A stretch of DNA of 32,000 nucleotides from Geotalea daltonii FRC-32 (GCF_000022265.1 NC_011979.1:2700001-2732000), one strand, 5' to 3'; positions 3,894 to 23,138 are shown, numbered from the stretch's first letter. The notes: generated by a model not told the origin, from the sequence alone. Numbers and translations are program-made.

Positions 3894-3922
3894 TTCATGG
3901 AAAGAGAAAAGGAGCAGAAACA

Positions 3923-4801
3923 ATGTCCCAGAAAAAAGTAAAAACCATTGCAATCTACGGTAAAGGAGGAATCGGCAAATCGACGACCACCTCAAACATC
4001 ACGGCAGCCCTGTCGACACTGGGTCTCAAGGTGATGCAGATCGGCTGCGACCCCAAGAGCGATTCCACCACAACCTTGAGGGGAGGGGGCTACATACCGA
4101 CCATCCTTGATACGCTCAGGGACAAGAAGTCGGTCAAATCCAACGAAATCATCTTCGATGGCTTCAATGGAATCTATTGCGTAGAAGCAGGCGGTCCAGC
4201 CCCTGGAGTAGGCTGTGCCGGCCGCGGCATCATCACTTCGGTGGAACTTCTCAAGCAGCTCAGAGTCTTCGACGAACTGGACCTGGACGTGGTGGTCTAT
4301 GACGTTCTGGGGGACGTCGTATGCGGCGGGTTTGCGGTACCGATCAGGGAAGGGATTGCCGATCATGTCTTTACCGTTTCTTCATCCGACTTCATGGCCA
4401 TCTATGCCGCCAACAACCTTTTCAAGGGGATCCAGAAATATTCCAATAACGGCGGCGCCCTCCTTGGCGGCGTTATCGCCAACTCCGTCAACACCGGCTA
4501 TGCCAAAGAGATCATAGACGATTTCGTCACCCAGACAAAAACCCAGGTGATCGAGTACGTGCCCCGATCGGTCACGGTCACCCAGAGCGAGCTGCAGGGC
4601 AAAACCACCATCGAAGCCTTCCCCGAGTCCGAGCAGGCAAAGGTTTACCGGGGCCTGGCCCAGAAGATCTACGATCACACCGAATCAAAGGTTCCGACAC
4701 CCCTGAACGACAAGGAACTCCATGAGTGGGCCTTCAAATGGGCCGATACCCTGCTTGCCATGGAGACCGGAGAAGTCCGCAGCAAAGCAGCGAATATTTA
4801 A
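3923..4801 (+). CDS. Canonical NifH-like Fe-protein (nitrogenase-like reductase component)
   Basis: Motifs: [39 protein letters not shown] (Cys97 equivalent), [15 protein letters not shown] (Cys132 equivalent). The true start is ATG 3923 (AAAAGGAG at 3907-3914). The 60-aa N-terminal extension in the ORF track (from 3743) overlaps the yezD-like ORF and is rejected. Confidence 0.9.
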
Positions 4802-4836: not shown

Positions 4837-5763
4837 ATGGGACGCATTTACAACAATTTAACTGACCTTATCGGCGGAACACCGCTACTTCATCTGCACC
4901 GGCTGGGCAAAGGGCTCGGCGCCGATATTATCGCAAAGCTTGAATCCTTCAACCCCGGCGGCAGCGTCAAAGACCGCATCGGCTTCTCCATGATCAAGGC
5001 CGCCGAAGAAAAAGGGCTGTTGAAAAAAGACTCGGTCATTATCGAGCCAACCAGCGGCAATACCGGCATAGCCCTGGCCTTTGTCGCCGCCGCCCGCGGT
5101 TATCGGCTGATCCTGACCATGCCCGACACCATGAGCATTGAAAGGCGGAACCTGCTCAGGGCCTACGGTGCGGAACTCGTATTGACACCAGGCGCCAAGG
5201 GAATGAAAGGAGCCATCGAGGCGGCAGATGAGTTGGCAGCCACTACTCCCAATTCATTCGTCCCACAGCAGTTCAAGAATCCGGCGAATCCCGCCATTCA
5301 CAGAGCCACCACAGCCGAAGAAATATGGGCTGATACCGACGGCAAGATCGACATCCTTGTTGGAGGCGTCGGTACCGGCGGCACCGTCACCGGTGTCGGC
5401 GAAGTCCTGAAGGAGCGCAAACCCGGCTTGCAGGTGATCGCAGTAGAACCATTCGATTCGCCGGTATTGTCCGGAGGAACCCCCGGTCCCCACAAAATCC
5501 AAGGTATCGGCGCCGGTTTTATCCCGGAGGTGCTCAATCAGTCAGTCGTCAACGAGGTCTACAAGGTCCGCAACGAAGAGGCATTCCTGACCGGAAGACG
5601 ACTTGCCCGGGAAGAGGGGCTTCTGGTGGGAATTTCCGGTGGTGCTGCAGCCTTCGCCGCTTTGCAGATTGCTGCCCGGCCGGAGAATGCCGGCAAAAAG
5701 ATCGTGGTGGTCCTCCCCGATACGGGCGAACGCTACCTTTCCACACCGCTTTTCGAAGAGTAG
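4837..5763 (+). CDS. cysK: Cysteine synthase A (O-acetylserine sulfhydrylase, PLP-dependent)
   Basis: 308 aa. Motifs: [20 protein letters not shown] (PLP lysine), [42 protein letters not shown] upstream. Confidence 0.95.
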
Positions 5764-5872
5764 GTCATGGGAAAGCGGTATCGGTGAGACAGGCTGGTTT
5801 GGTTCAAAAGGGTAGTAGGCCGTTCCCTTGGGAGTCGGAGGAAAAAAGCATTTTAGAAAAGGAAATAAATAC

Positions 5873-7387
5873 ATGAGCGAAAAAATTGACCTCAGTACAA
5901 ATAGCTGCCCCAACAGGGAACAGAGGGCAAACGGCGTCAACATTTTTTACGGCAAGGCCACGGAGCTGGTGGCTGACGCCCGTGCCGGAAAACTGAAGCA
6001 TCAAGAGCGGGCGTTTCAGCAGACTTCCGGCTGTATCCTCAACTTCTACCTGACTGTACGCGTCATGACGATCCGCGACGCCGTCATGATCGTCCACGCC
6101 CCGGTTGGCTGTTCGTCTTCCGCACTGGGATACCGGGAGCTGTTCAAGGGGATTCGGAAAGGGCTCGGGGGAATGCCGGAAGATTTCGAGTTCCATTGGC
6201 TCACCACCAACCTGAACGAACGTGATGTGGTGTACGGTGCCGCCGACAAGCTGAAGGCCGCCATTCATGAGGCCCAGAATCGCTACAATCCGAAGGCCAT
6301 CTTCATCATGTCTTCATGCACCTCAGGCATTATCGGCGAGGACATTGACGGTGTAGTGGCCGACATTCAACCGGAGATCTCAGCAACCATCGTTCCTGTC
6401 CATTGCGAAGGAACAAAATCGCGCCTGGTTCAGACCGGATATGACGTATTCTGGCATGCGGTTCTCAAGTACCTGGTGAAGCCACCGAAGAAAAAGCAGC
6501 CTGATCTGGTCAATATCGCCAGCATGTTGTCTTACACCTGGCAGGACAGAATGGAGATCACCCGGTTGCTGGGCAAGGTGGGGCTTCGCGTCAACTTCAT
6601 CCCGGAATTCGCCACTGTCGAGCAGTTTGAACAGCTCTCCGAGGCGGCGGTAACGGCGCCCATGTGTCCTTCCTATACGGATTACCTGTCGCGCGGCCTT
6701 GAGCAGGAATACGGAGTCCCGTTCTTCCTTTATCCTTCGCCGATCGGTATCGCGCACACCGACGAATGGCTGCGGACAATCGCCAAATATACCGGCAAGG
6801 AAAAAGAGGTTGAGGCGCTTATCGCTGAAGAACACGCCACCTGGGTTCCACAGCTGGAAAATATTCAGGGTGAGTTCAAGAGCCTGGCCCCCGAAGGTGA
6901 CAAACTTGATGTGCTCGGCTCCTTGGGACAAGGGCGGCTTCTGACGCAAACACCATTTTTCAACGAGCTTGGCGTCAAGGCAACCGCTGCCATAGTGCAG
7001 GACTTCGATAATCTGGTCCTGGATGAAATGGATAAGATGATCGAGGAAACAGGTGATTTCGATGTGCTGATCAATACTTTCCAGGCGGCAGAGGTCGCCC
7101 ACATTGCCAAGAATCGGGCACCGGACATCGTGCTGAGTTGCCCGTTCCAGGGGAGCGCCTATAAAAGGGACAAGGGGATGACCAGGATACACGCTCTGCG
7201 TGGTGACGCCCGTGAATGGAGCACCCAGGCCGGTTACAAGGGGGCGGTGGCTGCGGGAAATTTCCTGCTTCAGTCCACAAAGAACAAGTCATTTCAGCAG
7301 ACCATGAAGGCCAATACGGAAGAAACTTATACCGACTGGTGGTTTAAGCGGCCAAACCCGGTCTACCTGAAAGAGGAGGGGGCATAG
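5873..7387 (+). CDS. NifD-like subunit of nitrogenase-like enzyme, copy 1
   Basis: Cys-containing blocks sit where NifD has its P-cluster ligands: SGCILN, HAPVGCSS, SSCTSGIIGEDIDG. Cofactor-ligand-like positions are also present: TAPMCPSY and TRIHALRGD. Start taken at ATG 5873 (MSEKIDL), not the upstream alternative start at 5828. Confidence 0.85.
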   Translation: MSEKIDLSTNSCPNREQRANGVNIFYGKATELVADARAGKLKHQERAFQQTSGCILNFYLTVRVMTIRDAVMIVHAPVGCSSSALGYRELFKGIRKGLGGMPEDFEFHWLTTNLNERDVVYGAADKLKAAIHEAQNRYNPKAIFIMSSCTSGIIGEDIDGVVADIQPEISATIVPVHCEGTKSRLVQTGYDVFWHAVLKYLVKPPKKKQPDLVNIASMLSYTWQDRMEITRLLGKVGLRVNFIPEFATVEQFEQLSEAAVTAPMCPSYTDYLSRGLEQEYGVPFFLYPSPIGIAHTDEWLRTIAKYTGKEKEVEALIAEEHATWVPQLENIQGEFKSLAPEGDKLDVLGSLGQGRLLTQTPFFNELGVKATAAIVQDFDNLVLDEMDKMIEETGDFDVLINTFQAAEVAHIAKNRAPDIVLSCPFQGSAYKRDKGMTRIHALRGDAREWSTQAGYKGAVAAGNFLLQSTKNKSFQQTMKANTEETYTDWWFKRPNPVYLKEEGA

Positions 7388-7389
7388 CA

Positions 7390-8715
7390 ATGAGTCAAGC
7401 AAAAGTTGTCGAACTTTATCCCGATATTGCCGAAGCGCCGCGGTATTCCTGTGCCCTTGGCGGAGCTTATGTAACCGCACTTGCAGTCACCCATGCGGCT
7501 CCCATTCTTCATTCGGGTGCCGGATGCGGCCTTGGCCAGCAGTTCGGCCAGAACTATGCCGGCGGCATGAATGCCGCAGGCCGCCATGGCAACACAAGCA
7601 CTCCCTGCTCCTGCCTGGTGGAAGAGCATGTGGTATTCGGTGGAGAGGAGAAACTGCGCGACCTGATTGCATCGACCCTCAAGGTTGTCAAGGCTGACCT
7701 GTTCGCCGTAATTTCCGGCTGTGTTCCTTCCCTCATTGGTGACGATGTCGCGGCAGTGGTGAAAGAATTCAAAGGGCAAACGAATATAATTCATGTGCAA
7801 ACTGCCGGTTTTCTGGGCAATTCCTATCTGGGCTATGAACATTTCTTCGAGGCGGTAGTGGACCAGTTGCTGGCGCCGCTCCCGAAGCAGAAGAAACTTG
7901 TCAATATTTTCGGCATAGTGCCCAGCCAGCATATTCAGTGGAAGGGTCATCTGAGGGTTTTAAAGGCGCTGCTTGGAAAAATCGGCGTAGAGGCCAACAT
8001 CATTTTTACGGAAAAGGACGGTCTTGCGGCCCTGAAAAAGATCCCGGCTGCTGAATTGAACCTTGTCTTTTCACCATGGCTCGGGCTCAAGGTCGTTGAA
8101 AAATTGAAGGAAAAGTTTGAAACCCCATATGAGGTGATTCCTTTTGTGCCGGTAGGACCCCAGGACACTACCAGCTTCCTCAGGCAGATAGGTGAGCTGC
8201 TTCATATCCCGAAGAAGACGATTGAGGCGGTCGTGAAACCAGAGGAATGGGATGCCTACAATACCGCTGAATATTTCGGCGATCTTCTGGTAGTCGGCCT
8301 TCCCAATGCCTATTTCGGTGTGATTGCCGACAGCGGCACGGCCATCGGGCTGACCCGCTACGGCACCAATGAAATCGGTTTGCTTCCGGAGTTGGTGATT
8401 GTCAGCGATAATCCGCCTGAAGATTCGAGGGAGAATATTACTCGATTATTGACTGAGGGGCTGGCCAGCAGTATCAAACCCAAGGTCATTTTTGAGACAG
8501 ATAGTCACAAGATCAAGCTCATCCTGCAAAAGCACACCCTGCAGCTTCTGCTGGGTAGCTCGCTTGAAAAGCATCTGCCAAAGGGAGATGCCGGGTTTTT
8601 AAGCGTATCGTTTCCAACGTTCGACCGGATAGTTCTCGACCGGAGCTACGCCGGTTACCGGGGGGGGCTGAACTTTATTGAAGACGTGGGCGCACAGTTC
8701 TGCGGACCGTTGTAA
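7390..8715 (+). CDS. NifK-like subunit of nitrogenase-like enzyme, copy 1
   Basis: It starts 2 nt after the D1 stop. Blocks YSCALGGAY, HSGAGCG and ISGCVPSLIGDD correspond to the three NifK P-cluster cysteines. Confidence 0.85.
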   Translation: MSQAKVVELYPDIAEAPRYSCALGGAYVTALAVTHAAPILHSGAGCGLGQQFGQNYAGGMNAAGRHGNTSTPCSCLVEEHVVFGGEEKLRDLIASTLKVVKADLFAVISGCVPSLIGDDVAAVVKEFKGQTNIIHVQTAGFLGNSYLGYEHFFEAVVDQLLAPLPKQKKLVNIFGIVPSQHIQWKGHLRVLKALLGKIGVEANIIFTEKDGLAALKKIPAAELNLVFSPWLGLKVVEKLKEKFETPYEVIPFVPVGPQDTTSFLRQIGELLHIPKKTIEAVVKPEEWDAYNTAEYFGDLLVVGLPNAYFGVIADSGTAIGLTRYGTNEIGLLPELVIVSDNPPEDSRENITRLLTEGLASSIKPKVIFETDSHKIKLILQKHTLQLLLGSSLEKHLPKGDAGFLSVSFPTFDRIVLDRSYAGYRGGLNFIEDVGAQFCGPL

Positions 8716-8779
8716 TAAGTATCGGGATTGTCTCTGCTTGGTGGTAGAAGCGAGAAAGAAACAACTGCTGTAGAAGATG

Positions 8780-8837
8780 TGCTAACCAGAGATCTGGAGG
8801 CCGGTTATGCCTGATAAGGGCTACCGGCCTTTTTTTT
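8780..8837 (+). terminator. Hairpin module copy C: intrinsic terminator after the NifK-like gene
   Basis: TGCTAACCAGAGATCTGGAGGCC (small CCAG-agat-CTGG hairpin), then stem GGCCGGT (8799-8805) / ACCGGCC (8823-8829), then T8 (8830-8837). Confidence 0.7.
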
Positions 8838-8885
8838 AGGCGGCACCGGATCGCCGGACAGGTCGCCGGTGAAGGAGGGGAAACT

Positions 8886-11216
8886 TTGATACGGAAAATT
8901 GCAGAGAAAATCATCAGGTACAGGGTACAGGTCCTTCTGGTTATTGTGGCCTTGACCATATTCTTTGCCTGGCATCTTAAGGATATCAAGATTGCTTTCG
9001 GCGGTGGTGATATCGTTCCTCCCAACCATCCTTATGTAAAGTTGACTGAGAGGATGGTGGAGAAGTACGGCGGCGAGCATCTTGTGGAGATTGCCATCCA
9101 GGTAAAGCAGGGGGATGTTCTCGATCCGGTGAATCTGGCCAAGGTTTACAGGATCGACCAGAAACTGCGTGAAATGCAGGGAGTGGTTACCTCGAAGATT
9201 ATCTCGGTCGCATCCCGCAAGTTCTCGCGGGTTAACTTCGCCTATGACGAACTTGGATATTCCACCCTCCACTTCGAAAAGTATCAGGACCTTGTCCGGA
9301 AGATCAACGACGGAGACAGCAAGGAGGCTACTGCGTTCAGGGAAGAGGTGCTGAACAATGACATGATCTCCGGTACCATTGTGTCCCCCGACCGAAAGAG
9401 GACGCTCATTCTGGCCGGTTTCAGGTATGAAGAGGATTACCGGTACATATTCGAGACGTTACAGAAGATAGTAAACGAAGAAAAGGATGCAAACACAGAA
9501 TTTTTCCTGGCCGGGCGGCCGATCATGCTCGGTTATATTGACTCGGCATTCAGGGGAATTCTGGTCGTCTTCGCCATTGCCGTTCTGGTGATGGTGGTAA
9601 CCCTCTATCTGGACTTCCGGACCATCCGTGGCGTCCTTCTCCCTCTCTCTTCAGGTCTGATCGGCGTTGTCTGGGGACTCGGTTTCATGTCCCTCCTCGG
9701 GCACAGGATAGATGTCCTTGGGGTGACCATACCCTTCTTGCTGGTTGCACTGGCCCACGGTCATTCAGTCCAAATTCTCTCGCGGTACTACTATGAGTAT
9801 GCCAACGGCCGCAATCGGGAGGAAGCGGCAGTAGAGTCGATGATCGGCCTCTTGAAACCTATGACCACCTCTATTTTTGCCGATGCAGTGGGTCTGTTCG
9901 TCCTGATACTGATGCCTTTCCGAAGTATCCAGTCCATGGCGCTGGTGGGGACTGCAGGCATCGTGGCTATCTGCGTCGGCTGCTTTGTCTTGATACCGGT
10001 ATCCCTTGCACTACTCCCCCCCATGAAACAATCTTCAGTCAATCGTGAAGAGAGCTGGTTCGGGCCGATCTTCGAACGTTTGGCTAAATTTTCCCTTGGT
10101 AAGGGCAAAGTGCCGATCCTCGCTCTTACCGGTGTAGTGCTGGTAATTGCACTTGTGGGTGCTTTCAAGGTACGGGTCGGCGAACTACAGTCCGGTTCGC
10201 CCGATTTCTGGCCGAATGCCCCCTACAACAAGGCAGAGAAGGTCGTTGAGCAGATGACCGGCGGGAACCTCTATTGGATAAACATAGAGGGTGACCGCAC
10301 CGGCGCTCTTTACGATGCAAAGGTGATCAGTGACATCAACGCCCTTCAGCGACACCTGGGTGAGATGCCTGAGGTGGGTTACTCCATATCCTATGTGGAC
10401 GCCCTGAAAAAAGTAAATGCAGCAATGCATGAGAATGATCCGCGCTGGGAGATCCTTCCGAACGATACTGCTTCGGCGGGGGAACTGATTGGAATGATCG
10501 GGGGAAGCGAGGGGTACGACGAAAGCAAGGACATGTTCACCAAGGACTACAAGTCAGGCACCATCGCGGTTTTTCTCAAGGACCGCAAGCCGGAAACACT
10601 GAAAAACGTCATTTCCGGCACCTGTGACTTCCTGAAGAAAAATCAGGCGAGCGACATACGCTTCGAACTCCCTGGCGGAACAGCGGGCATCTATTCGGCA
10701 ATCAACGAGGAGATTGAGAAAAACGAGTTCCTTAGCGTCGTCATCGTCGTTGTGGCGTGTCTGATTCTTACCGTTCTTGCCTTCAAGTCATGGCTTGCCG
10801 CTCTCATCATCTTTGTACCCCTGCTTATCGGCAAGGCGATCACCATGGCCTTCATGGGTTATGGAGGCATTGGCTTCTTCATCTATACCTTGCCGGTTGT
10901 AACCCTCGGTTTCGGGCTGGGAATCGATTTCTCCCTCTACATTCTGGCCAGGCTTAAGGAAGAAATCTCTGAATCCGGTGATTTTGTCACGGGATACATC
11001 AAGGCGCTCGGCACTTCGGGGCGTGCCGTGCTCTTTACCGGTCTGACCATGACCGGCGGCCTGCTAACCCTTTGTCTGTCCGAGATGCGTTTCCAGGCGA
11101 TCCTCGGTTCCATGCTGAGCGTGGTGGTAATGGCCAACACGATCATCGCGCTACTGTTTTTCCCGGTTTTACTATCGGTCATCAAACCTAAATTCTTGTT
11201 TCAAAGAGGGGAATAA
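8886..11216 (+). CDS. RND-superfamily (MMPL/HpnN-like) inner-membrane permease
   Basis: 776 aa. TTG start preceded by GAAGGAGGGG (8871-8880, 5-nt spacing). Two blocks of about 6 hydrophobic helices each follow a large soluble loop, which is the RND/MMPL topology. No adaptor or OMF gene is adjacent. Confidence 0.8.
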   Translation: MIRKIAEKIIRYRVQVLLVIVALTIFFAWHLKDIKIAFGGGDIVPPNHPYVKLTERMVEKYGGEHLVEIAIQVKQGDVLDPVNLAKVYRIDQKLREMQGVVTSKIISVASRKFSRVNFAYDELGYSTLHFEKYQDLVRKINDGDSKEATAFREEVLNNDMISGTIVSPDRKRTLILAGFRYEEDYRYIFETLQKIVNEEKDANTEFFLAGRPIMLGYIDSAFRGILVVFAIAVLVMVVTLYLDFRTIRGVLLPLSSGLIGVVWGLGFMSLLGHRIDVLGVTIPFLLVALAHGHSVQILSRYYYEYANGRNREEAAVESMIGLLKPMTTSIFADAVGLFVLILMPFRSIQSMALVGTAGIVAICVGCFVLIPVSLALLPPMKQSSVNREESWFGPIFERLAKFSLGKGKVPILALTGVVLVIALVGAFKVRVGELQSGSPDFWPNAPYNKAEKVVEQMTGGNLYWINIEGDRTGALYDAKVISDINALQRHLGEMPEVGYSISYVDALKKVNAAMHENDPRWEILPNDTASAGELIGMIGGSEGYDESKDMFTKDYKSGTIAVFLKDRKPETLKNVISGTCDFLKKNQASDIRFELPGGTAGIYSAINEEIEKNEFLSVVIVVVACLILTVLAFKSWLAALIIFVPLLIGKAITMAFMGYGGIGFFIYTLPVVTLGFGLGIDFSLYILARLKEEISESGDFVTGYIKALGTSGRAVLFTGLTMTGGLLTLCLSEMRFQAILGSMLSVVVMANTIIALLFFPVLLSVIKPKFLFQRGE

Positions 11217-11254
11217 CCCCTTCTGCATGCAATCTAAAAGAAGGAGAGTACGGT

Positions 11255-12967
11255 ATGAATTTCAAACTGAAGAAGCTGGTCCCCTTGCTGGCATTGCTGG
11301 TGCTGGTGTCGAGCAGCATCAACGCCTGGTCCGCGGACGATAATGCGTCCGGGCAGGAAGCCACCGCTAACACCACCTCCACTGCCGAAACAACTGCGCC
11401 GGAAAATGCCGCTGGTGAAAGTGGTGCCATTGCCACTACCGCTTCCACTTCTGAAACAGCAGCGCCAGAAAATGCCGCCGGTGAAAATGACACCGTCGCT
11501 GCCACCGCTTCGGAACCGGGCAACGCCGCGGATACTGGGGCGGTGGAGACCCTGCAGGAGCCATTCGACCCGTTCAATGTGATCGTGTACAAGCCACTCT
11601 GGGCTCTTACCTCCGCGATCGGCGATTTCAACCCCATCGGTAAGCACGTTTCAGCTCCCCTTGAGGAGTCAGTCCCGGGGCTACGCGTAAAGGGTTTCAT
11701 CAACAGCATAACGCAGATCAACACTACCTCCACCGATCACAATACGGGCCTTGGGGGAAGAAACAAGGACTGGAGGCTGCAGAAGCAAGAGTTCCGCACC
11801 CAGCTCGAACTCAAATACCAGGCAAATGAGAACATCGAATTCGTCAACGTTAACAATTTCCAGTATGACGGCGCCTACGACTTTCAGGACAGCGACGGCC
11901 TCTACACGGATGGTTCCTCCAACCAGAAATACTATTCCCAGTTCAAACGGATCGTTCGCGAGGCCTATGTCCGCGGTAACTATGGAAACGTCAACTTCAC
12001 CCTTGGCAAGCAGATCGTCAACTGGGGCAAGATGGATGGTAAGGTCATCGATTTCGTCAATGCTGCCGACGGCCGTGACGTTGTAGATTTCCATATCGGT
12101 GATTACGAGTGGCGGGCCATCGGCCAATGGATGGCAAACGTATCGTTGCGACCAACCGAGAACATAACTACCACCTTTCTGTGGAACCCTGATTTCCAAC
12201 CCAATGTGGGGCCTGCGGGAGGTTCGCCGTGGTGGTTTCCTTTCGCTCAATCGCCCGTTTCCAGCGCCCAGCGACCTCCCGAGAGAAATCCTTCCGGTTT
12301 TGACCGGCTCGCGGATAGCGAAGGCGGGGTGCGAGTGGATACGACCATCGGCGCCTTGTCATTGAGTGGAATTTATTACAACGGATTTGATCGTGACGCG
12401 GTTTTCAACACATCAGATAACACTCTCCATCACACCCGCCTCAACCGCTATGGCTACGCGCTCGACTACGGAACCAGTATCTTCGGACAGCGGCTGATCA
12501 TCCGTTCGGAAGCACTCTATTCCCATGGTAAGGCATTCAGTACTTCGGATCCTTCGGCACCTGGCGGGATCGTAAAGAAAGACCAGCTCAAACTTGCCGT
12601 CGCCTTCGAGACCTCCGTGGGCTCGGACGAAAACAAGATCGACATCCTTTATCAGCCGATCTGGACCCGTCAGCTGGGATGGGATAGTCGCACCGGCGCC
12701 AAACTCAACGACCTCCTCCATGTCGTAAACCTGAGCCATTCCGTGCGCAAGACGAACGACAGGCTGAAACTGAGCACTACCGGGTACATTTCGGGGGGAT
12801 CAGGCTATGACGGCCTCAGCTACAACGTCTCGGCAGGATGGAAATTCAATGATTACCTCAAGGCAACGCTGGCCTATAACGATTTCGTCGGCAAAGACGA
12901 CGATATCCCCTGGGGTGCATATAGAAAATGGAAGAACGTGACGCTGGACGTCAAGTACGAGTTCTAA
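11255..12967 (+). CDS. Outer-membrane beta-barrel protein, DUF1302-like
   Basis: Signal peptide (LLALLVLVSSSINA/WS), Thr/Ala/Glu-rich linker, then alternating beta-strand-like sequence ending in the OMP signature ...DVKYEF with a C-terminal Phe. The DUF1302 assignment comes from overall pattern and gene neighbourhood, not from a search. Confidence 0.6.
   Translation: MNFKLKKLVPLLALLVLVSSSINAWSADDNASGQEATANTTSTAETTAPENAAGESGAIATTASTSETAAPENAAGENDTVAATASEPGNAADTGAVETLQEPFDPFNVIVYKPLWALTSAIGDFNPIGKHVSAPLEESVPGLRVKGFINSITQINTTSTDHNTGLGGRNKDWRLQKQEFRTQLELKYQANENIEFVNVNNFQYDGAYDFQDSDGLYTDGSSNQKYYSQFKRIVREAYVRGNYGNVNFTLGKQIVNWGKMDGKVIDFVNAADGRDVVDFHIGDYEWRAIGQWMANVSLRPTENITTTFLWNPDFQPNVGPAGGSPWWFPFAQSPVSSAQRPPERNPSGFDRLADSEGGVRVDTTIGALSLSGIYYNGFDRDAVFNTSDNTLHHTRLNRYGYALDYGTSIFGQRLIIRSEALYSHGKAFSTSDPSAPGGIVKKDQLKLAVAFETSVGSDENKIDILYQPIWTRQLGWDSRTGAKLNDLLHVVNLSHSVRKTNDRLKLSTTGYISGGSGYDGLSYNVSAGWKFNDYLKATLAYNDFVGKDDDIPWGAYRKWKNVTLDVKYEF
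11372..11500 (+). repeat. In-frame tandem duplication (~21 aa x2) in the linker of the DUF1302-like protein
   Basis: TTSTAETTAPENAAGESGAIA followed by TTASTSETAAPENAAGENDTVA. The nucleotide units are similar but not identical. Confidence 0.6.
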
Positions 12968-13024
12968 AAGAAAGCAACCCAGTGCACAAATGGAAATCGG
13001 ACCAACAAAAGAAGGAGATGCGAC

Positions 13025-13996
13025 ATGAAGATCGCAGATGTTGAAATGAAGACCCATCAGTTGAGGAAACCCGGTGCCCTTATCCACAGAATGGGGATTT
13101 CTCTGGTGATGCTGACAGTCGTCTCCATGCTTTTCGCCTGCTCAGGAAAAGGGGGAGAGAAGGTCAGTGCGTCGACGTGGAAAACTTATCAACTGCCCTT
13201 TAACCATGTGGTCTTCGATCTGAAGCAGACAGGAGAGAAGGATGGGTGGGCGGTTGGAGAGAGAGGGCTTATACTTCGGTTCGACGGCACGAAATGGGAG
13301 CAAGTCGAATCCCCGGTGGCTGTCCCCCTCTTTGCCATTGCCTTCCCTGAATCTGACCGCAGATGGGCAGTCGGGGCCGATGGGACGATTCTGGAAGGAA
13401 ATAGCGATGGTTGGAAGGAGGTTCAAAAGCCGGACAAGTGGCACCTCATGTCGGTTGCTTTCCCATCGCCGGCAGACGGATGGGCTGTCGGAGAGAGAGG
13501 TTCCATTGTTCACTATGACGGCAAGGAATGGAAAAAGGTTGAGTCACCAAAAAAAGTGGCCCTGAACCGAGTCGTATTCAACAACCCCAACGATGGATGG
13601 GCCGTGGGCAATCAGGGGGTGATCCTCCATTACGACGGCAAAGGATGGAAGGAGATTTCATCTTCCACTGACCGGACGCTGTACGGGATAGCATTCCGGA
13701 ACTCGAATGACGCCTGGGCGGTTGGAGAGAAGGGCACCATTCTTCATTATGACGGCAAGTCCTGGTCGAAAGCCGAAAGCCCGGTCGAACGAACCTTCCT
13801 CAATGTGGCCGTTTCCAATGGAAAGGATGCATATATCGTCGGGCGTGGCGGAGAACTGCTTTCCCTGCATGAAGGCAAGTGGACACAGGGCGCCGATTCC
13901 CTAACCAGAAAGACCCTGTATGCCATTGATATTCCGCCGGACGGGAAACCGTGGGTTGGGGCAACCACCCGCGATATCTTCAAAAAACAACTTTAA
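13025..13996 (+). CDS. Ycf48/BNR-like beta-propeller lipoprotein
   Basis: Lipobox MLFAC/SG. About 6-7 repeats of a ~47-aa unit (DGWAVGERGxILHYDGKxWxxVESP...), typical of photosystem-II-assembly-factor-like (Ycf48/Hcf136) propellers. Confidence 0.7.
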   Translation: MKIADVEMKTHQLRKPGALIHRMGISLVMLTVVSMLFACSGKGGEKVSASTWKTYQLPFNHVVFDLKQTGEKDGWAVGERGLILRFDGTKWEQVESPVAVPLFAIAFPESDRRWAVGADGTILEGNSDGWKEVQKPDKWHLMSVAFPSPADGWAVGERGSIVHYDGKEWKKVESPKKVALNRVVFNNPNDGWAVGNQGVILHYDGKGWKEISSSTDRTLYGIAFRNSNDAWAVGEKGTILHYDGKSWSKAESPVERTFLNVAVSNGKDAYIVGRGGELLSLHEGKWTQGADSLTRKTLYAIDIPPDGKPWVGATTRDIFKKQL

Positions 13997-14052
13997 GCTT
14001 TATCTGCTGAAATCATGCGGAAATTCATAAACCGTAGCGAAAGGAGAAAGAA

Positions 14053-15498
14053 ATGAAGAATCAGAAAATGAAGGGCGTGGTCGCGCTTGCCACCTTGGCT
14101 GCTATTGCAGCCACAGACCTATCGGTCGTGGCCCGGTTCGGTATCGCCAAGGAAAATGTTGATTGGGGTAAGGTAGCATGGACGCCGGCAAAATCTACTT
14201 CACCCTGGAAAGAGTGGAACTGGAACCCGAAGAAGGAAGGGCGGTCCTGGAAATATGTGGAGGAACTGTCGCAGGCAGAAAAGGATTACTGGCAGATCGA
14301 CGGGCGCTGGTCCCACGAGATCCCCAGGGACAAGGAGTATCCCAAATTGCCGGAGGAGAGATATCCGTTCAAGGCCCCATACAGTGGGGAGGAACTTAGC
14401 GCTCTTGGGGAAGCCGGGGGCGGGGGTACCGTTATGTGCGGCCTGCAGGCCCATAGTGGATACCACATTTCCCGGACCAAAGACCGGAACGGAGTTATCA
14501 GCAAATCAGACACGATCTGCAATACGATCAGGCACTACAAGACCTTTGCCGAACAACTCTACAAGTTCAAGCCTGGGCAGGAGACCGGCGCCTACCTCGT
14601 TGTCGTGGCCAATCCGCCCGAGTCCGCAGGCACCGTCTCGCTTTCAAAATTCTACAAGGATGGCCCCGGTGTTTCCAAGCTTGAAGACCGTTGGGCATAT
14701 CTGCCGTCGCTACGGCGTGTTCGCAGGATCTCCGGCGCCAGCGGCTCGGACTATATCCCCGGTTCGGTCGCTACCTATGATGACGTATTCCTTCGGGATT
14801 TCTGGAAATACGACTCGAAAATCATCGGTGTGGACATTCTCTATCAGGCCGTTAACAGCAAAAAGCCTTACGGACCCATTGCGGGGCCATATCGCGCCGA
14901 TGGCGGCATAGAGACCTATGTGGTTTTAAGCAAACCTGTAAAGAATGGGTACTATCTCAGTCAGTGGATCAGCTGGCATGAGAAAAAAACCGGTCATATC
15001 ATTCGTCAAGAACAATGGGACCGCAAGGGTAACTTTAAGAAGGTTTCGGAAAAAGGTCTTTCCGGGCAGGTCTTATACTTTAATAAACTCATCTACCCTT
15101 GGTCGGAAGGGTTCAAGGGCGGGCTGACCGAGAGCGGCGCCGAGCGACGGGCGATTTTGCACGGCGGAGGACCTGATCAGGTATGGGACGTGGAGCAGGA
15201 CGTGCAGACCTATACTATTCCCGACACTCCTGACAAAAAGATCTCCTATGAGAAGTTCGGCAACCTGGATGCCTATGCCGGCAAGGAGACATGGAAACAG
15301 CTGTTCCAGCCGCAAAGGATCGAGAATCCATTCGTGAAGCCGGTACCTGTGGTGAAATTCGAGGCAACGGATTTCCCTCCCACCCCTCCTCTCTATCGAG
15401 ATAAGTTTTCAAAGTTCCGCAAGATCTCGCTTCCTGCCGAGATCCTGCAAAAGATCAAGAAGGATGAACAGAGCAAGCGGGGACTTTTTAAATCTTAA
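14053..15498 (+). CDS. DUF1329-like periplasmic/outer-membrane-associated protein (LolA-like fold family)
   Basis: Signal peptide present. Block WAYLPSLRRVRRISGASGSDYIPGSVATYDDVF matches the DUF1329 core I recall (..PalRRvRR...tyDD..). AAAGGAGAAAG RBS upstream. Confidence 0.65.
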   Translation: MKNQKMKGVVALATLAAIAATDLSVVARFGIAKENVDWGKVAWTPAKSTSPWKEWNWNPKKEGRSWKYVEELSQAEKDYWQIDGRWSHEIPRDKEYPKLPEERYPFKAPYSGEELSALGEAGGGGTVMCGLQAHSGYHISRTKDRNGVISKSDTICNTIRHYKTFAEQLYKFKPGQETGAYLVVVANPPESAGTVSLSKFYKDGPGVSKLEDRWAYLPSLRRVRRISGASGSDYIPGSVATYDDVFLRDFWKYDSKIIGVDILYQAVNSKKPYGPIAGPYRADGGIETYVVLSKPVKNGYYLSQWISWHEKKTGHIIRQEQWDRKGNFKKVSEKGLSGQVLYFNKLIYPWSEGFKGGLTESGAERRAILHGGGPDQVWDVEQDVQTYTIPDTPDKKISYEKFGNLDAYAGKETWKQLFQPQRIENPFVKPVPVVKFEATDFPPTPPLYRDKFSKFRKISLPAEILQKIKKDEQSKRGLFKS

Positions 15499-15513: not shown

Positions 15514-15549
15514 GAAGACGGGCCATTGGGACTCCACTGGCCCGTCTTC
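15514..15549 (+). terminator. Strong hairpin after the envelope operon (no U-tract)
   Basis: GAAGACGGGCCA (15514-15525) / TGGCCCGTCTTC (15538-15549), a 12-bp perfect stem followed by CTTGGGGGG rather than a T-run. Confidence 0.4.
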
Positions 15550-15567: not shown

Positions 15568-17283
15568 ATGCATGATAATTTGAGTGAGCTGCCCATAACG
15601 GATGATACACCCATAAACCTTAAGGAAAACACTTGCCCGACCCGTGAACAACGGTTGTCGGTCGCCATAAACGCCTATTACGGTACCATGAGCGATCTGG
15701 TCAAGGGGACTCGTGAAAAGAGCCTCGTTCAGCCGGACCGCTGTTTTGAACAGTCTGGGAACTGCCTTCTGGCTCTTAATGCCCAACGGCTCATCAGCAT
15801 TCGCGATTCCGTGCTCCTGTTTCACTCACCCATAGGGTGTGCAGCAGGCCAGCACAGCAGTCACGAACTCTTTCAGCATATTCCCATCGAGCAGGGGCGA
15901 CCTGCCGATCTGGGTTTTTTCCATGCGGTCAGCACCAATCTGACTGACAGCGATGTGGTTTTCGGCGGCGGCGAGAAGCTGGTCGCCGCCCTCAAGGAAG
16001 CTGACCGGCGCTATTCGCCCCGGGCCATTTTTGTCGTCACCTCCTGTGCCTCCGGTATCATCGGCGACGACCTGGAAGGGGCTGTCAATGAGGCCCAGCC
16101 GCACGTTAAGGCAAAGATCGTCCCCTGTCACACCGAAGGATTCCGTTCCCGTGTAACGCAGACCGGCTACGATGCCTTCTGGCACGGGGTTCTCAAGTAT
16201 CTGGTGCGAAAGGACCTGCCGAGAGAGAAGGATCTGGTGAACGTTACCAACATGTTCTCCTACACCTGGATGGACAAGATCGAAATAAACCGGCTCCTCA
16301 CCAAGCTGGGGCTCAGGGTCAATTTCATACCCGAATTCGCCTCGGTGGAAGATCTGGAGCGGATGGGGGCTGCAGCGGTGACCGCGCCGATCTGCCCGAC
16401 ATTCGCCGACTATCTGATGCGGGGGCTGGATGAGCACTTCGGCGTTCCCTATTTCAACGACGTAATCCCCTTCGGCATCAAAAAGACCGACGAGTGGCTC
16501 CGCAGGATCGCCAGCTATACGGGCAAGGAAAAGGAGGTGGAGGAGCTCATCAAGGAGGAGCACGCCACCTACATCCCGAAGGTGGACAAAATCCGGCAGG
16601 GGTTGGAGGACATCCGCAGGCGGATGGTGGCAAAAGGGACCAAGAAGGAGGGGGAGAAGCTGACCGCCATCGGTGCGGTCGGCCAGGGCCGCGTCATCGG
16701 GCATGCCGTATTCCTGGAAGAGCTGGGTTTGGAAGTCGCAGCTGCTTGCGCCATTGATTACGATTCCCTCATCGCCGATTCCTTTGATTCCCTGGTCAAG
16801 GAAGTGGGTGATTTCATCGTTCTCGTCTCAACTTTCCAGGCTGCTGACTACGCTAATCTCTTTGCCAGGCTCAAGCCGGACCTTTCCCTCCAGGCCCCCT
16901 TCAAGGGGGGTGTAATCAAGACCGCCCACACCATTGGAACCATCCATTGGCTCAGGGGCCACAATCATCCTTCACAGGTTCAAGCCGGTTATGCCGGCGC
17001 CGTCGGATACGGGGATATGGTCCTGCGGAGTTTCCAGAACACTGCACTGACCAAGCTGCTTGCCGACTTCGATGACTCCCCCTACAAGGATTGGTGGTAC
17101 AAAGCCGATCCGCTGCATTATGTGAAGGGAAGGGACGAGATCTTCAAGTCCAACCCTCTAACAATACCGGATGATCCGGATCACGGTCACGAACATGATG
17201 ATCACCGTCATCACGACCACGGCCACACCCACAGCCATGGTCACGACCACGGTCAGGATCATGCTCACGGCCACAAGCATTAA
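15568..17283 (+). CDS. NifD-like subunit, copy 2, with C-terminal His-rich tail
   Basis: Paralog of the 5873 gene; long blocks are identical by eye (LGLRVNFIPEF, AAVTAP.CP, TDEWLR.IA.YTGKEKEVE). Ligand-type blocks: SGNCLLAL, HSPIGCAAG, TSCASGIIGDDLEG, TAPICPTF, TIHWLRGH. The tail is HGHEHDDHRHHDHGHTHSHGHDHGQDHAHGHKH. Confidence 0.85.
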   Translation: MHDNLSELPITDDTPINLKENTCPTREQRLSVAINAYYGTMSDLVKGTREKSLVQPDRCFEQSGNCLLALNAQRLISIRDSVLLFHSPIGCAAGQHSSHELFQHIPIEQGRPADLGFFHAVSTNLTDSDVVFGGGEKLVAALKEADRRYSPRAIFVVTSCASGIIGDDLEGAVNEAQPHVKAKIVPCHTEGFRSRVTQTGYDAFWHGVLKYLVRKDLPREKDLVNVTNMFSYTWMDKIEINRLLTKLGLRVNFIPEFASVEDLERMGAAAVTAPICPTFADYLMRGLDEHFGVPYFNDVIPFGIKKTDEWLRRIASYTGKEKEVEELIKEEHATYIPKVDKIRQGLEDIRRRMVAKGTKKEGEKLTAIGAVGQGRVIGHAVFLEELGLEVAAACAIDYDSLIADSFDSLVKEVGDFIVLVSTFQAADYANLFARLKPDLSLQAPFKGGVIKTAHTIGTIHWLRGHNHPSQVQAGYAGAVGYGDMVLRSFQNTALTKLLADFDDSPYKDWWYKADPLHYVKGRDEIFKSNPLTIPDDPDHGHEHDDHRHHDHGHTHSHGHDHGQDHAHGHKH

Positions 17284-17309: not shown

Positions 17310-18683
17310 ATGACTGCGACAAATGTACTGAAATTTACCGATGAAGACGAGCGCATTGCCGCTCTTGATCCCAAGGACCGTCCCTTGCAGGAGACACCTC
17401 GCCATACGTGCGCCTTGGGCGGCGCGTTTGTGGCAGCTACCGCCGTGTCAGGGGTGATGCCGATCCTCCATTCGGGAGGAGGATGCGGCTGGTCCAATTT
17501 CTTCGGCTTTATCGGCGCCAGCGGCGGCGGGCAGATCGGCGACGGCGGTGCATTGACTACCCCCTGTTCGACCCTGCTGGAAAAGCATGTGGTCTTCGGC
17601 GGTGAGGAAAGGCTGCGCGACCAGATCGCTTCGACCATGGAACTTATGAACGGGGACCTGTTCGTCACGGTGTCGGGTTGTATCCCGGCGCTTATCGGTG
17701 ACGATGTTGAAGGGGTCGTCTCCGAATTCAGGAAACCGGAATACCCTCCCATCATTAACGTCAAATCATCGGGATTCAACGGGACCTCCTACGATGGCTA
17801 CGACCTGTTCCTGGATGCGGTTATCGACCAGTATCTGGAAGAGCGACCGGTCCGGAAAGGCTTGGTAAACATCCTCGGTATCCAGCCCTGCCAGCACATA
17901 TTCTGGAAGGGAGACCTGGATCTTTTCAAGACCAACCTGGATGCCATCGGTCTGGAGACCAACCAGATCTTCGGCGGCAGATACGGTGTTGAAGGGCTGA
18001 AGAATATTCCGGCCGCCCAGTTGAACATTGTCCTCAGTCCCTGGCAGGGTTTGAAAGCCGCGGAAAAACTCAAGGAGAAATACGGCACCCCCTATATCGT
18101 CTATCCTGGGTTGCCCATGGGCCCCAAGGAAATGACCCGCTTTCTGCGTACGGTGGCCGAACATCTGGATGTGGAACAGGAGCGCCTGGATAAATGGATC
18201 AGGAAGCAGACAGAGATTGCCTACGACGACTTCAATCTGATTGCCACGGCTCTATATACCGGGTTTTGCAACGTTCACTTCGCGGTCGTCGCGGAATCGA
18301 ATATGGCCATCGGGTTGGTCAGGTACCTGACCAATGAATGCGGCCTGCTTCCCAGTGTGGTGGTCGTGACCGACAATCCCCCTGCAGAAGTGCGTGACCT
18401 CATCACCGACAGGCTCACCAATGGACTCGAAGGCATAATCGTTCCCGACGTCTACTTCGAGAACGATACCTACCTGATTCACAAGAGACTGACGAAATAC
18501 ACTTTCATGCTCCTTTTCGCCAGCTCCATGGAAAAGTACGCTGCCAGCAAGTACATGGCCGGCCATCACACGATTTCTTTTCCCGCCTTTGACCGGGTTA
18601 TCCTCAAGCGCACCTATGCCGGGTTCGGGGGAGGAAATATCCTCCTGGAAGACCTGTTCAGCAAATTCGCCAGGCCGTTCTAA
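17310..18683 (+). CDS. NifK-like subunit, copy 2
   Basis: Blocks HTCALGGAF, HSGGGCG and VSGCIPALIGDD parallel copy 1. AAAGGAGA RBS upstream. Confidence 0.85.
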   Translation: MTATNVLKFTDEDERIAALDPKDRPLQETPRHTCALGGAFVAATAVSGVMPILHSGGGCGWSNFFGFIGASGGGQIGDGGALTTPCSTLLEKHVVFGGEERLRDQIASTMELMNGDLFVTVSGCIPALIGDDVEGVVSEFRKPEYPPIINVKSSGFNGTSYDGYDLFLDAVIDQYLEERPVRKGLVNILGIQPCQHIFWKGDLDLFKTNLDAIGLETNQIFGGRYGVEGLKNIPAAQLNIVLSPWQGLKAAEKLKEKYGTPYIVYPGLPMGPKEMTRFLRTVAEHLDVEQERLDKWIRKQTEIAYDDFNLIATALYTGFCNVHFAVVAESNMAIGLVRYLTNECGLLPSVVVVTDNPPAEVRDLITDRLTNGLEGIIVPDVYFENDTYLIHKRLTKYTFMLLFASSMEKYAASKYMAGHHTISFPAFDRVILKRTYAGFGGGNILLEDLFSKFARPF

Positions 18684-18728
18684 GGTGCCCGGCATCAAAT
18701 CATGGAAAAAACCTATGGAGAGCCGATC

Positions 18729-19112
18729 ATGAGCTGGGTACGGGTTGCCGTCGCCTCGACGGACGGAATAGCAATCGACCAGTCACTACAGGAGGTCTCT
18801 TCCTTCAGCATTTATGATGTAGCTGTGGAGGGCCCCCGGTTCGTGGAAACACGCAAGGCAGCCGGGGCCTCTGCTTTGCCCGGCCCTGGCGGGGAGCCAA
18901 CCGGCCTGTCCATGGATGAATTTCTGGATATCATCTCCGATTGCTCACTCCTGGTTGTAAGGTCTTTGGGAGTTGAAGCCGGGGGGAAGATACAGATCGG
19001 GTGGCTGACCGTCTATGAGGCAGATATGCAGGTTGAAAAGGCATTGAAGAGGTTTTCCAGCAGTCCCCTGATCAAAAACTTGTTTGGGAATAAAGCAGAC
19101 CCAACCGATTGA
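18729..19112 (+). CDS. NifX/NafY/NifB-C-terminal-like cofactor-binding domain protein
   Basis: VRVAVASTDGIAIDQSLQEVSSFSIYDV..., then a central DC (IISDCSLLVV), then GVEAGGKI. This is the dinitrogenase Fe-Mo-cofactor-binding domain pattern. ATG 18729 has GGAGAG 6 nt upstream; the alternative start is ATG 18702. Confidence 0.7.
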   Translation: MSWVRVAVASTDGIAIDQSLQEVSSFSIYDVAVEGPRFVETRKAAGASALPGPGGEPTGLSMDEFLDIISDCSLLVVRSLGVEAGGKIQIGWLTVYEADMQVEKALKRFSSSPLIKNLFGNKADPTD

Positions 19113-19660: not shown

Positions 19661-19802
19661 CAGGTTGTTGAAAAACGTGATGAGGAGGTCGGGATGCAAG
19701 GCTCAAGTGAAGGAGGGAGCGAAACGTACTGTGATGTACGTTGAGTTTCCGAGTGAGCGGCAACACAGCAGACCGGCCCCGCAATAGTTTTTCAACAGCC
19801 TG
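19661..19802 (+). other. Unassigned structured 5' leader upstream of the SsuA-like gene
   Basis: A 16-bp closing helix CAGGTTGTTGAAAAAC (19661-19676) / GTTTTTCAACAGCCTG (19787-19802), with one G-U pair, encloses ~110 nt. The enclosed region contains an internal 7-bp hairpin AACGTAC-tgtgat-GTACGTT. It lies in a 227-nt intergenic gap. Confidence 0.35.
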
Positions 19803-19848
19803 TTTGAGGAGCCCATTGGGCTTGCGGAGCAAAGAAGGAGGATTAAAC

Positions 19849-20889
19849 ATGCCGGGATTCATGAACAAAGCCATCAGGATTGTAGCAATTGCCATTGCCC
19901 TGTCGTCAGTTGCGAGCTTGCTGGGGGCATGCAAGAAAGAGACTAAAGGGGCAACCGTCGGCGATGGGCTGTTCCCGATCAAAGCCATCACCAGGAAAGA
20001 CTGCTCACTTGCACCCTGGCTGGTGACCGAAAAACTCGGTTTCTTTGCACAGGAGGGGATCAGGATTGTCTACACCGGTGAAACACAGCCCGCTCTGGTC
20101 CTCCCTTCTGTATTGAAGGGGGATAACGACGTGGCCGGCGACCACCCCAACGCCCTGGCGGTGGCCAAAGCCGGAGGGGCGAAGATCACCGGTGTGGTGC
20201 GCAGCGGCATAGACCCTGCTCCAGACCTTAATCCGGAACTGCGCCACATGTTCTGGTACGTAAACCCTGAGAAATATCCCGATGTCAAATCCTTTGCGGA
20301 TTTGAAGAAGTTGCCGGGCAAACTCAAATTCTCCACCATCACCAACAACATCTGTTCGGACTTCCTGGCCAACAGGATCGCCGATAAAAACGGGATTCCG
20401 AGGGATAAATTCGAATGGGTGACGATGCCTGACGTTCAGGCGATCCAGGCACTGAAACAGGGGTTGGTGGACGTGGCCGGTGTACATCCACCCTTCTACA
20501 AGCCAATGGTAATTTCCGGAGCGCGCAAAATTTCGGATTCATTGGAAACAGGCCTGGGTCCCTCAGCAGGCGTTAGTTTTACCTATTTTCGGGACGATTT
20601 CATAGAGAAACACCCGGATGTGGTCCGTGGTTTCATCCGGGCCATGGGCCGGGGAGGGGCATGGATCAATGACCATCCCGAAATGGCCGCCAAATGGACT
20701 TCGGAGGCGATTGGGGTGCCTGTGACCGGCAACCATTATTACTCACCCAAAAATGACATCCTGGAGAGCGAGATCGAGCCATGGATTCAAGACCTGGAGG
20801 AGCATAAGGTGATCCCTCGCGGCAAAGTCAAGCCCTCTGACCTGGTGTCTCACCAGTTCGAGACGCACGAGGTTTACTCGTGGAAATAA
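19849..20889 (+). CDS. NMT1/SsuA/TauA-family ABC-transporter substrate-binding lipoprotein (orphan)
   Basis: ATG 19849 is preceded by AAGGAGG (19834-19840). Lipobox SLLGAC/KK. The body has the two-lobe SBP pattern of the NitT/TauT family. The ORF-track start at 19741 is rejected. No permease or ATPase gene is adjacent. Confidence 0.7.
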   Translation: MPGFMNKAIRIVAIAIALSSVASLLGACKKETKGATVGDGLFPIKAITRKDCSLAPWLVTEKLGFFAQEGIRIVYTGETQPALVLPSVLKGDNDVAGDHPNALAVAKAGGAKITGVVRSGIDPAPDLNPELRHMFWYVNPEKYPDVKSFADLKKLPGKLKFSTITNNICSDFLANRIADKNGIPRDKFEWVTMPDVQAIQALKQGLVDVAGVHPPFYKPMVISGARKISDSLETGLGPSAGVSFTYFRDDFIEKHPDVVRGFIRAMGRGGAWINDHPEMAAKWTSEAIGVPVTGNHYYSPKNDILESEIEPWIQDLEEHKVIPRGKVKPSDLVSHQFETHEVYSWK

Positions 20890-21243: not shown

Positions 21244-21292
21244 TAGCTGCCGGTGAGGGTTCAGCCGAAGGAAGGTTTATCTGACCATCACA

Positions 21293-23040: not shown

Positions 23041-23041
23041 T

Positions 23042-23100: not shown

Positions 23101-23138
23101 GGCGAAAGCGAAAACAGTATTCCCGGGAGTAAATGAAT

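Follow-up and report, generated by a model that had tools for sequence, protein, structure and literature searches.

A predicted AmeABCD-type envelope cassette that recurs beside nitrogenase-like reductase genes in Geotalea daltonii and related loci

A quartet of genes at positions 8886–15498 of a 32,000-nt segment of Geotalea daltonii FRC-32 (GCF_000022265.1 NC_011979.1:2700001-2732000; this whole segment is called the window, and all positions are window-based) lies between two modules of nitrogenase-like (Nfl) reductase genes and is, judged from its sequence, a deep branch of the known AmeABCD-type envelope cassette. In Castellaniella defragrans, AmeABCD expression rises on monoterpenes; deletion mutants tolerate these compounds less well and show more Nile Red accumulation/uptake, and an ameB transposon mutant grows more poorly on monoterpenes (PMC6394551). 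In Shewanella, Kangiella, and Pseudomonas, the four cassette genes show cofitness, from which Price et al. proposed that the cassette exports a cell-wall component (bioRxiv 10.1101/072470). Pseudomonas putida mutants in the DUF1302, DUF1329, BNR, and RND (resistance–nodulation–division) genes fail to grow on the fatty esters Tween 20 and butyl stearate (bioRxiv 10.1101/2020.07.04.188060). The function of this set of families had been called unsettled in the first-pass annotation of this DNA, which is too sweeping, as the AmeABCD-type cassette has deletion phenotypes in Castellaniella (PMC6394551).

AmeABCD and the DUF1302/DUF1329/COG4447/COG1033 cassettes of Pseudomonas, Shewanella, Thauera, and Aromatoleum consist of the same four families as the window quartet, encoded by adjacent, co-directional genes. 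They likewise contain an HAE3-type RND permease without a classical membrane-fusion protein (MFP) or outer-membrane factor (OMF), and are located within a pathway-specific cluster for hydrophobic compounds; on the Aromatoleum EbN1 plasmid, the canonical four-gene cassette is found among beta-oxidation-type genes. Compared with the EbN1 cassette, the window RND permease is 30% identical over its full length and the propeller 26–28%, whereas the DUF1329 proteins are 36% identical only across the 66-residue RRVRR block, and the barrels align over a single 59-residue motif (E 0.002), for which pairwise BLASTP alone is nearly uninformative. The identity of the window permease to the RND permeases of canonical cassettes is 25–30%, which makes it at best a sister branch. 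The window cassette further differs in its gene order (RND–barrel–propeller–DUF1329), in a barrel that is below Pfam detection, in a lineage-specific leader RNA in front, and in its partner, which is a set of nitrogenase-like reductases in a putative sulfur-starvation island rather than a terpene, aromatic, or fatty-acid catabolic island.

Three other described systems were compared. The HAE3/MMPL exporters of lipids, siderophores, and sterols (HpnN, MmpL3/4/5, and BstA) are the nearest solved or curated relatives of the permease, but all matches are weak (PDB chains at E 6e-12 or worse; NCBIfam scores far under the cut-offs) and these systems are without DUF1302, DUF1329, or Ycf48-like partners. 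AcrAB-TolC and CusCBA (HAE1/HME) are also RND-driven and envelope-spanning, and a true cusBA pair is present in the window island; unlike them, the quartet has no membrane-fusion protein or TolC-like channel, and its partners have LolA-like, beta-propeller, and porin-like barrel folds. On the enzyme side, MarBHDK of Rhodospirillum rubrum and Rhodopseudomonas palustris has NifB-, NifH-, and NifX-like genes and cysteine/methionine-synthesis genes adjacent, as in the window, whereas the window enzymes differ in the His-rich tail of NflD2 and in that the Mar pocket residues and Arg428-His429 are not conserved in the alignment, which is unreliable in the Arg428-His429 loop. An envelope transporter partner is not mentioned in the Mar paper or in the review of nitrogenase-like (NFL) systems that were searched.

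All large genes of the window are on the + strand, and the four co-directional open reading frames (ORFs) and both flanking hairpins were found where the first-pass annotation had placed them. The first gene (8886–11216, TTG start) encodes a 776-aa HAE3/MMPL-type RND inner-membrane permease, which Pfam MMPL matches in two stretches (124 bits; cut-off 20.5); the best NCBIfam match is TIGR00921 (HAE3) at 192 bits, below the model cut-off of 351.9. Hydropathy predicts 1+5/1+5 transmembrane segments and two periplasmic loops of ~190 aa, and the nearest solved relatives are MmpL4/5/3 and HpnN. Within the Nfl-linked clade the permease is 72–99% identical. No HlyD-type MFP or TolC-OEP channel domain was found in the three partner proteins, and the quartets of related loci are likewise without one. 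An MMPL/RND-type permease lacking an MFP or OMF partner, as first described, is thus borne out by the MMPL match and by the absence of an MFP/OMF gene from the quartet; cusBA is a separate pair, located 10 kb further downstream.

The second gene (11255–12967) encodes a 570-aa outer-membrane beta-barrel with a signal peptide and a C-terminus of ...VKYEF. The YEF ending had been read correctly, but the membership in DUF1302 claimed for this protein is confirmed only indirectly, by way of homologues, an intermediate from Nitrospinota, and a modelled structure, which leaves it a divergent DUF1302 protein. The barrel has no Pfam match even at E ≤ 10, and NCBIfam assignment failed too. PF06980 (DUF1302) is matched by 8 of 27 close homologues that are 44–80% identical to the barrel (best E 1.4e-13). 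A protein of a Nitrospinota metagenome-assembled genome (MAG; locus L007), 31% identical to the barrel (E 7e-48), itself scores 54 bits on PF06980. The AF2 model (pLDDT 69, with strands beginning at residue 143 and continuing to the C-terminus) matches 16–18-stranded porins with a Foldseek probability of 1.0, and in alignment an LGKQxVxWG motif is shared with the DUF1302 protein of EbN1. Residues ~27–100 (11330–11560) form a disordered Thr/Ala/Glu-rich N-terminal region, the length of which differs among homologues, and a 66-nt tandem repeat is located in this region at 11360–11491.

The third gene (13025–13996; the true start is probably the ATG at 13091) encodes a Ycf48/BNR-like beta-propeller lipoprotein, with a PSII_BNR (PF14870) match of 85.5 bits and a lipobox, LFAC. 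The match and lipobox sustain the description as a lipoprotein propeller, but the repeat of ~47 aa originally proposed does not stand: the measured period is 117 nt (39 aa), with six clear repeats. The fourth gene (14053–15498) encodes a 481-aa periplasmic LolA-like/DUF1329 protein with a signal peptide, for which LolA_like (PF17131; 54.7 bits) and DUF1329 (PF07044; 40 bits) are both over their cut-offs; the RRVRR...YDD block by which it was first recognized is present, and its PDB sequence matches are 9TP6, 3BK5, and 4Z48. MMPL, BNR/Ycf48, and DUF1329 were therefore all matched directly by profile searches in the window proteins.

Related loci were gathered from genomes, metagenomes, and assemblies via the barrel and the RND permease, and all window proteins were mapped onto them. 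The loci (numbered with the prefix L) comprise 16 RND lineages, 15 of them separated at ≤97% identity plus L042 at 60%. NifH, NifB, NflD, or NflK genes are immediately beside the quartet in 12 of these, and in five lineages the quartet is downstream of a nifH-like gene and inside, or flanked by, a nifB/nifH/nflDK set. In L005, L027 (which ends at contig edges), and L038, the order is nifH–[quartet]–nflD2(K2), preceded at some distance in L005 and L038 by a nifB-like gene; L010 has the order nifB–nifH–[quartet]–metY; and in L042 a nifH-like gene and a small DUF2325 gene are on one side of the quartet and a nifB-like gene on the other, with an OscA-like DUF2292 gene adjoining. Named relatives are mostly Geobacteraceae, and L005 is an acidobacterial (Bryobacterales) MAG. 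In Geotalea toluenoxydans JCM 15764 the same region is present, with a barrel 98% identical at the protein level.

The conserved unit is the quartet followed by nflD2K2, and the upstream neighbour varies. By lineage, the genes upstream of the quartet are nflK1, nifH, MtaA-like, metY, DUF2325, NMT1, or dsbC, and those downstream are nflD2, metY, a short-chain dehydrogenase/reductase gene followed by cusBA, cusBA itself, a nifB-like radical S-adenosylmethionine (SAM) gene, or a methyltransferase gene (directly or after a small ORF). A reverse search from NflD2 found the quartet directly upstream in every examined bacterial member at ≥72% identity; NflD2 relatives at 62–64% identity, one of them from Methanoperedenaceae, have no quartet. 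Since Nfl genes number a handful per genome, the adjacency cannot be chance. The proposed association of the quartet with the Nfl genes thus gains from its recurrence over rearranged loci in at least two phyla, from the NflD2 reverse search, and from a shared, covarying leader, and the functional coupling is well supported. The picture of the quartet as an insert wedged between two duplicated modules is not upheld: insertion into a tandem duplication is ruled out by the constant downstream partner nflD2K2 and the changing upstream neighbour.

More distant relatives have other surroundings. The RND permease of L043 (41% identity) adjoins an acyl-CoA ligase gene and not Nfl genes, and in L007 (6455–14213) a DUF1302 and LolA-like pair lies between two HGD-D gene pairs (benzoyl-CoA-reductase/2-hydroxyacyl-CoA-dehydratase type). 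The context of the cassette thus follows the pathway. Most of the NflD2 relatives that have no quartet carry other transporter genes instead. In L020/L021 and L040, a major facilitator superfamily (MFS) gene with weak, efflux-type best matches lies just before the nifH-like gene; SsuA-like binding proteins are encoded in L020 and L041, together with ATP-binding cassette (ABC) permeases in the archaeal L020.

The leader in front of the RND gene (copy C, 8775–8836; 65.7 bits with the covariance model described below) consists of GCUAAC, a hairpin termed P1 (8786–8789 paired with 8794–8797), GGAGG, a terminator stem (8799–8829), and a U run; the stem followed by U8 is terminator-like. A second stem-loop (8844–8871), present in both the minimum-free-energy and centroid folds, lies between this terminator and the ribosome-binding site (GAAGGAGGGG) of the RND gene. 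The general element is ~60 nt long and comprises, from 5′ to 3′, GCUGAC, a 4-bp hairpin with a 4–5-nt A-rich loop, a GGAGG/AGAGG junction that is invariant among copies, a GGCC-based terminator stem, and a U run. A covariance model (R1) seeded on 19 leader copies matched 36 copies at E < 0.001 in the window and L002–L035, all on the sense strand and in leaders, with none antisense. These precede quartet, nifB-like, cbiM, cusB, NMT1, and nfl genes, and the copies before the last three were outside the seed. The relationship first noticed between copy C and the leaders of the nifB-like and cbiM operons is affirmed, as all three are matched by this one model (E 6e-15 for copy C, and 5e-11 and 1.5e-13 for the other two). 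P1 is 95% paired across the 36 copies, its middle two pairs exchange CG/UA/UG and AU/GC/GU, and its covariation score is above all 500 shuffles and every slid register.

Nearly every Geobacteraceae-type locus has the leader ahead of its RND gene, frequently as tandem copies, and in other loci cusBA lies behind its own leader copy downstream of the quartet. No copy was found in L005, L038, the archaeal loci, or the canonical cassettes, so the synteny between quartet and Nfl genes is independent of the leader. Rfam gave no match at gathering thresholds over the whole window, and permissive scans of two leaders gave only sub-threshold, terminator-driven small-RNA matches. The leader is a candidate new attenuator or riboswitch-like cis-regulatory RNA, and within the window it would place the quartet, the nifB-like operon, and cbiM–cusBA under the same type of control. 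A simple promoter scan of the interval between nflK1 and the RND gene found nothing convincing, and copy C probably modulates read-through from the upstream nfl operon. Copies A (2724–2778) and B (23037–23094) are preceded, by eye, by promoter-like hexamers and AT-rich inverted repeats of the TAGA...TCTA type, and copy C by neither; the repeats lie between hexamers and leaders at 2680–2712 and 23012–23042, and also occur at leaders of L009, L015, and L023. The CymR-like Rrf2 regulator encoded at 11–445 could use these repeats as operators. Two other explanations of the leader were rejected: a leader peptide, because the ATG mini-ORF that accompanies GGAGG, by eye, in copy C, L003, L004, and L006 is either missing from copies A and B, L002, and L010 or not in register there; and an ANTAR-type two-hairpin target, which is ruled out by the lone 4-bp hairpin with its 4–5-nt loop and by the lack of hexaloops.

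The interval between quartet and nflD2 contains a GC-rich hairpin (15514–15549; −28.2 kcal/mol, z = −4.3) without a U tract, and no U-tract terminator was found there in the window sequence or its fold. A comparable hairpin of different sequence occupies the same position, from the DUF1329 stop to the nflD2 start, in L002, L009, L024, and L027. The window hairpin is probably an mRNA processing or stability element rather than a full terminator, and it may set the ratio of membrane to cytoplasmic products.

NflD1 (5828–7387) and NflD2 (15568–17283) are 45–48% identical at the protein level, and the paralogous NflD1K1 and NflD2K2 genes are ~70% identical in DNA patches at a constant offset of 9728 nt. 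The best PDB match of both is 9FMG_A, which is R. rubrum MarD (E 1e-70 for NflD1 and 1e-68 for NflD2, with NifD at ~1e-30; PMC12552129). The P-cluster triad Cys66, Cys91, and Cys158 of MarD and its cofactor Cys270 align with Cys in both proteins. The Mar pocket residues Cys73/Gln74, Trp195, and Phe199 are not conserved in the alignment. Because neither these nor Arg428-His429, the proposed hallmark of Mar, are aligned, NflD1 and NflD2 are called Mar-like and not Mar. An IHxLRG sequence is conserved in both, ~15–20 residues past the position of Arg428-His429. The C-terminus of NflD2 (~17185–17283) is a His-rich tail (HGHEHDDHRHHDHGHTHSHGHDHGQDHAHGHKH), which NflD1 and MarD do not have, and most members of the NflD2 clade at ≥72% identity are ~50–110 residues longer than relatives of ~510 aa. 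The tail, and the presence of cbiMQO and cusBA in the same regulon, are hints that metal handling is involved.

The surrounding island has features of sulfur scavenging. Candidate sulfur-starvation markers are the CymR-like regulator, a sulfate-binding protein (505–1512), an OscA-like small ORF (1561–1727), and cysK (4837–5763), and metY occurs in related loci. From these neighbouring genes, the quartet would be expected to respond to sulfur limitation. All Mar homologues in R. palustris are induced by sulfur limitation (bioRxiv 10.64898/2026.08.20.746119), in agreement with the sulfur-scavenging context of the window island.

Taken together, the four genes are proposed to encode one Ame-type four-component envelope machine that is a dedicated accessory of Mar-like Nfl reductases, the nearest characterised relative of which cleaves C–S bonds. 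In this model, the proton-driven HAE3/MMPL-class RND permease would draw a hydrophobic or amphiphilic molecule out of the inner membrane, the LolA-like (DUF1329) protein would carry it through the periplasm in a hydrophobic pocket, the Ycf48-like lipoprotein propeller, probably an assembly or adaptor subunit, would scaffold the assembly, and the DUF1302 barrel would release the molecule at or through the outer membrane. The quartet is probably co-transcribed with nflD2K2–nifX and would be gated, within the sulfur-starvation island, by a terminator-type leader like those of the nifB-like and cbiM operons. The position of the quartet in Nfl clusters suggests that these enzymes handle something greasy that needs transport over the envelope, and the best candidate cargo would be the hydrocarbon or thiol by-product left when a greasy organosulfur substrate loses its sulfur, moved outward. 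To our knowledge, every characterised relative of this RND class (MmpL3/4/5, HpnN) exports lipophilic molecules. Export is the favoured direction because of these relatives, because the Ame data point to efflux, and because the archaeal counterpart gene looks like an efflux MFS gene. The whole statement, an Ame-type machine that serves Nfl and exports a hydrocarbon or thiol by-product, is given a probability of roughly 0.55.

Several points weigh against this export model. The known substrates of Mar (dimethyl sulfide, ethyl methyl sulfide, and methylthioethanol) and its known products (methane, ethylene, and methanethiol) are small, membrane-permeant molecules that should need no pump, so that the model requires bulkier substrates. 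The phmmer alignment gives A/C-PF-K/Q in NflD1/NflD2 at MarD Arg428-His429, in a loop where the alignment is unreliable, and without these aligned residues the chemistry of the enzymes is uncertain. The fatty-ester phenotype in P. putida looks more like uptake or surface processing than efflux. Four lineages (L003, L004, L006, and L015) have no Nfl gene in the visible flanks: the first three are closely related contigs of uncultured Geobacter/Desulfuromonadales MAGs, two of them short, with the order NMT1–quartet–methyltransferase, and L015 contains the quartet, cusBA, cytochrome c, TehB-like methyltransferases, nitroreductase, and DsbC genes with no Nfl gene within 10 kb. In most lineages the quartet is accompanied by the cusBA pair and a gene for an ArsM-like methyltransferase, L004 and L015, where Nfl genes are not visible, being among them; this would fit a wider module for stress or detoxification. 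Finally, the loci are related by descent or transfer and are phylogenetically not independent.

A further, tentative reading is that the NflD2K2 clade, distinguished by its His-rich tail, works on hydrophobic organosulfur compounds rather than small volatiles and recruited an Ame-type quartet either for substrate delivery or for by-product disposal, with the entire unit (quartet, nfl, cbiMQO, cusBA, and NMT1) switched by a riboswitch-like attenuator, new to description, that senses sulfur status. This possibility would, if true, provide the first defined physiological cargo for a DUF1302/DUF1329 cassette and a new substrate range for the Mar family.

The main rival to export is uptake, in which the DUF1302 barrel and the LolA-like carrier would pass hydrophobic organosulfur compounds (e.g., long-chain or aromatic thioethers) inward to Nfl, and the RND permease would energise or clear the carrier. 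The loss of growth of the P. putida cassette mutants on Tween 20 and butyl stearate and the reduced growth of the ameB transposon mutant on monoterpenes are consistent with this direction. The close relative Geotalea toluenoxydans is a toluene oxidiser, which may point the same way if there is a link to organosulfur-rich environments. Moreover, the SsuA-like NMT1 protein travels with the quartet with no ABC permease nearby in the bacterial loci, both being present in the archaeal L020. However, net import over the bacterial inner membrane is not known to be driven by any protein of the RND superfamily, the nearest solved RND relatives are all exporters, the Nile Red data for Ame favour efflux, and the archaeal gene in the corresponding position encodes an MFS protein with weak, efflux-type best matches; uptake is consequently regarded as rather doubtful.

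A general role in envelope maintenance or stress is less probable still. In this case, the quartet, cusBA, the ArsM-like methyltransferase, and the AhpD-like protein would constitute a thiol/thiophilic-metal or membrane-homeostasis unit, which is co-induced with the sulfur-starvation regulon and does not handle Nfl substrates or products. The cusBA genes, in which CusB carries an HMBD, follow the quartet in L004, L010, L012, L015, L018, L023, L032, and L038, often behind their own leader copy; together with the association of the quartet with cusBA and redox/methyltransferase genes in L015, and the proposal of cell-wall component export by Price et al., this fits such a unit. The sandwich of the quartet between nifH-like and nflD- or nifB-like genes in L005, L027, L038, and L042 and the nifB–nifH arrangement in L010 are, however, hard to explain without a direct role, the adjacency of quartet and nflD2 is invariant over the bacterial D2 clade, and relatives at ≤41% identity are found in catabolic clusters without the Nfl genes, so that context tracks pathway. 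Chance hitch-hiking, in which the cassette landed between duplicated nflDK modules with no functional link, could draw on the flanking paralogues NflD1K1 and NflD2K2 and on the terminator-like hairpin between nflK1 and the RND gene, but is effectively excluded by the recurrence of the adjacency in 12 lineages with differing flanks and in two phyla, and by the fact that the separating terminator belongs to the conserved leader family common to the nifB-like operon.

Whereas the cassette type is known, its deep branch, its repeated placement in Nfl clusters in at least two phyla, and the leader RNA that ties the quartet to nifB-like, cbiM, cusBA, and NMT1 genes appear to be new. A literature search, which covered sources other than subscription journals, found nothing linking NFL/Mar systems to RND, efflux, outer-membrane, or DUF1329 components, and within that same scope no paper was found to have anticipated the link between Nfl and an envelope machine, which the first-pass annotation had considered novel. 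The study of nitrogenase-like C–S reductases is a young field in which the known substrates are small volatiles and, within the literature searched, the published Mar/NFL clusters list no envelope component. A pump that lies beside or between nifB, nifH, and nflDK across lineages would mean that at least one clade handles cargo that crosses membranes poorly or is toxic to them, and a wider likely substrate range for anaerobic sulfur scavenging would follow. The DUF1302/DUF1329/Ycf48/HAE3 cassette occurs widely, for example in Pseudomonas and Acinetobacter, and no cargo has yet been defined for it; the cargo question becomes directly testable with a version coupled to one enzyme system in a group that counts Geotalea toluenoxydans and Geobacter pickeringii among its isolates. 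The shared leader, as a candidate new cis-regulatory RNA, would define a regulon.

The remaining genes of the window are arranged around the quartet as follows. A second NifH-like ATPase (1763–2602) follows the OscA-like ORF, and leader copy A then opens the upstream Mar-like module, which consists of the nifB-like gene (2803–3678), nflH (3743–4801), cysK, nflD1, and nflK1 (7390–8715). Downstream of the quartet, nflD2 is followed by nflK2 (17310–18683), a NifX-like gene (18702–19112), and a 155-aa ORF that precedes the gene for the SsuA-like NMT1 binding protein (19741–20889). In L002/L018, L005, and L009/L024, a third, more distant nflDK pair (~490 + 430 aa) comes after the nifX-like gene, at the place of the 155-aa ORF in the window. 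Leader copy B precedes cbiM-PDGLE, cbiQ, and cbiO (23133–25795), and cusB and cusA (25826–30519) are followed by a cytochrome c gene. In L018 (1718–2791) and at the equivalent position in L002, a gene of the MtaA/CmuA family of corrinoid-dependent methyl-transfer proteins is directly upstream of the quartet, which may explain the presence of the cobalt/nickel energy-coupling factor (ECF) importer cbiMQO in the regulon. Like the NMT1 protein, the AhpD/CMD protein (20932–21243) and the ArsM-like SAM methyltransferase (21293–21919) are recurrent companions of the quartet; this pair (20932–21919), which recurs beside the quartet elsewhere, resembles a split form of NCBIfam NF041537, ‘arsenite methyltransferase/AhpD domain selenoprotein’.

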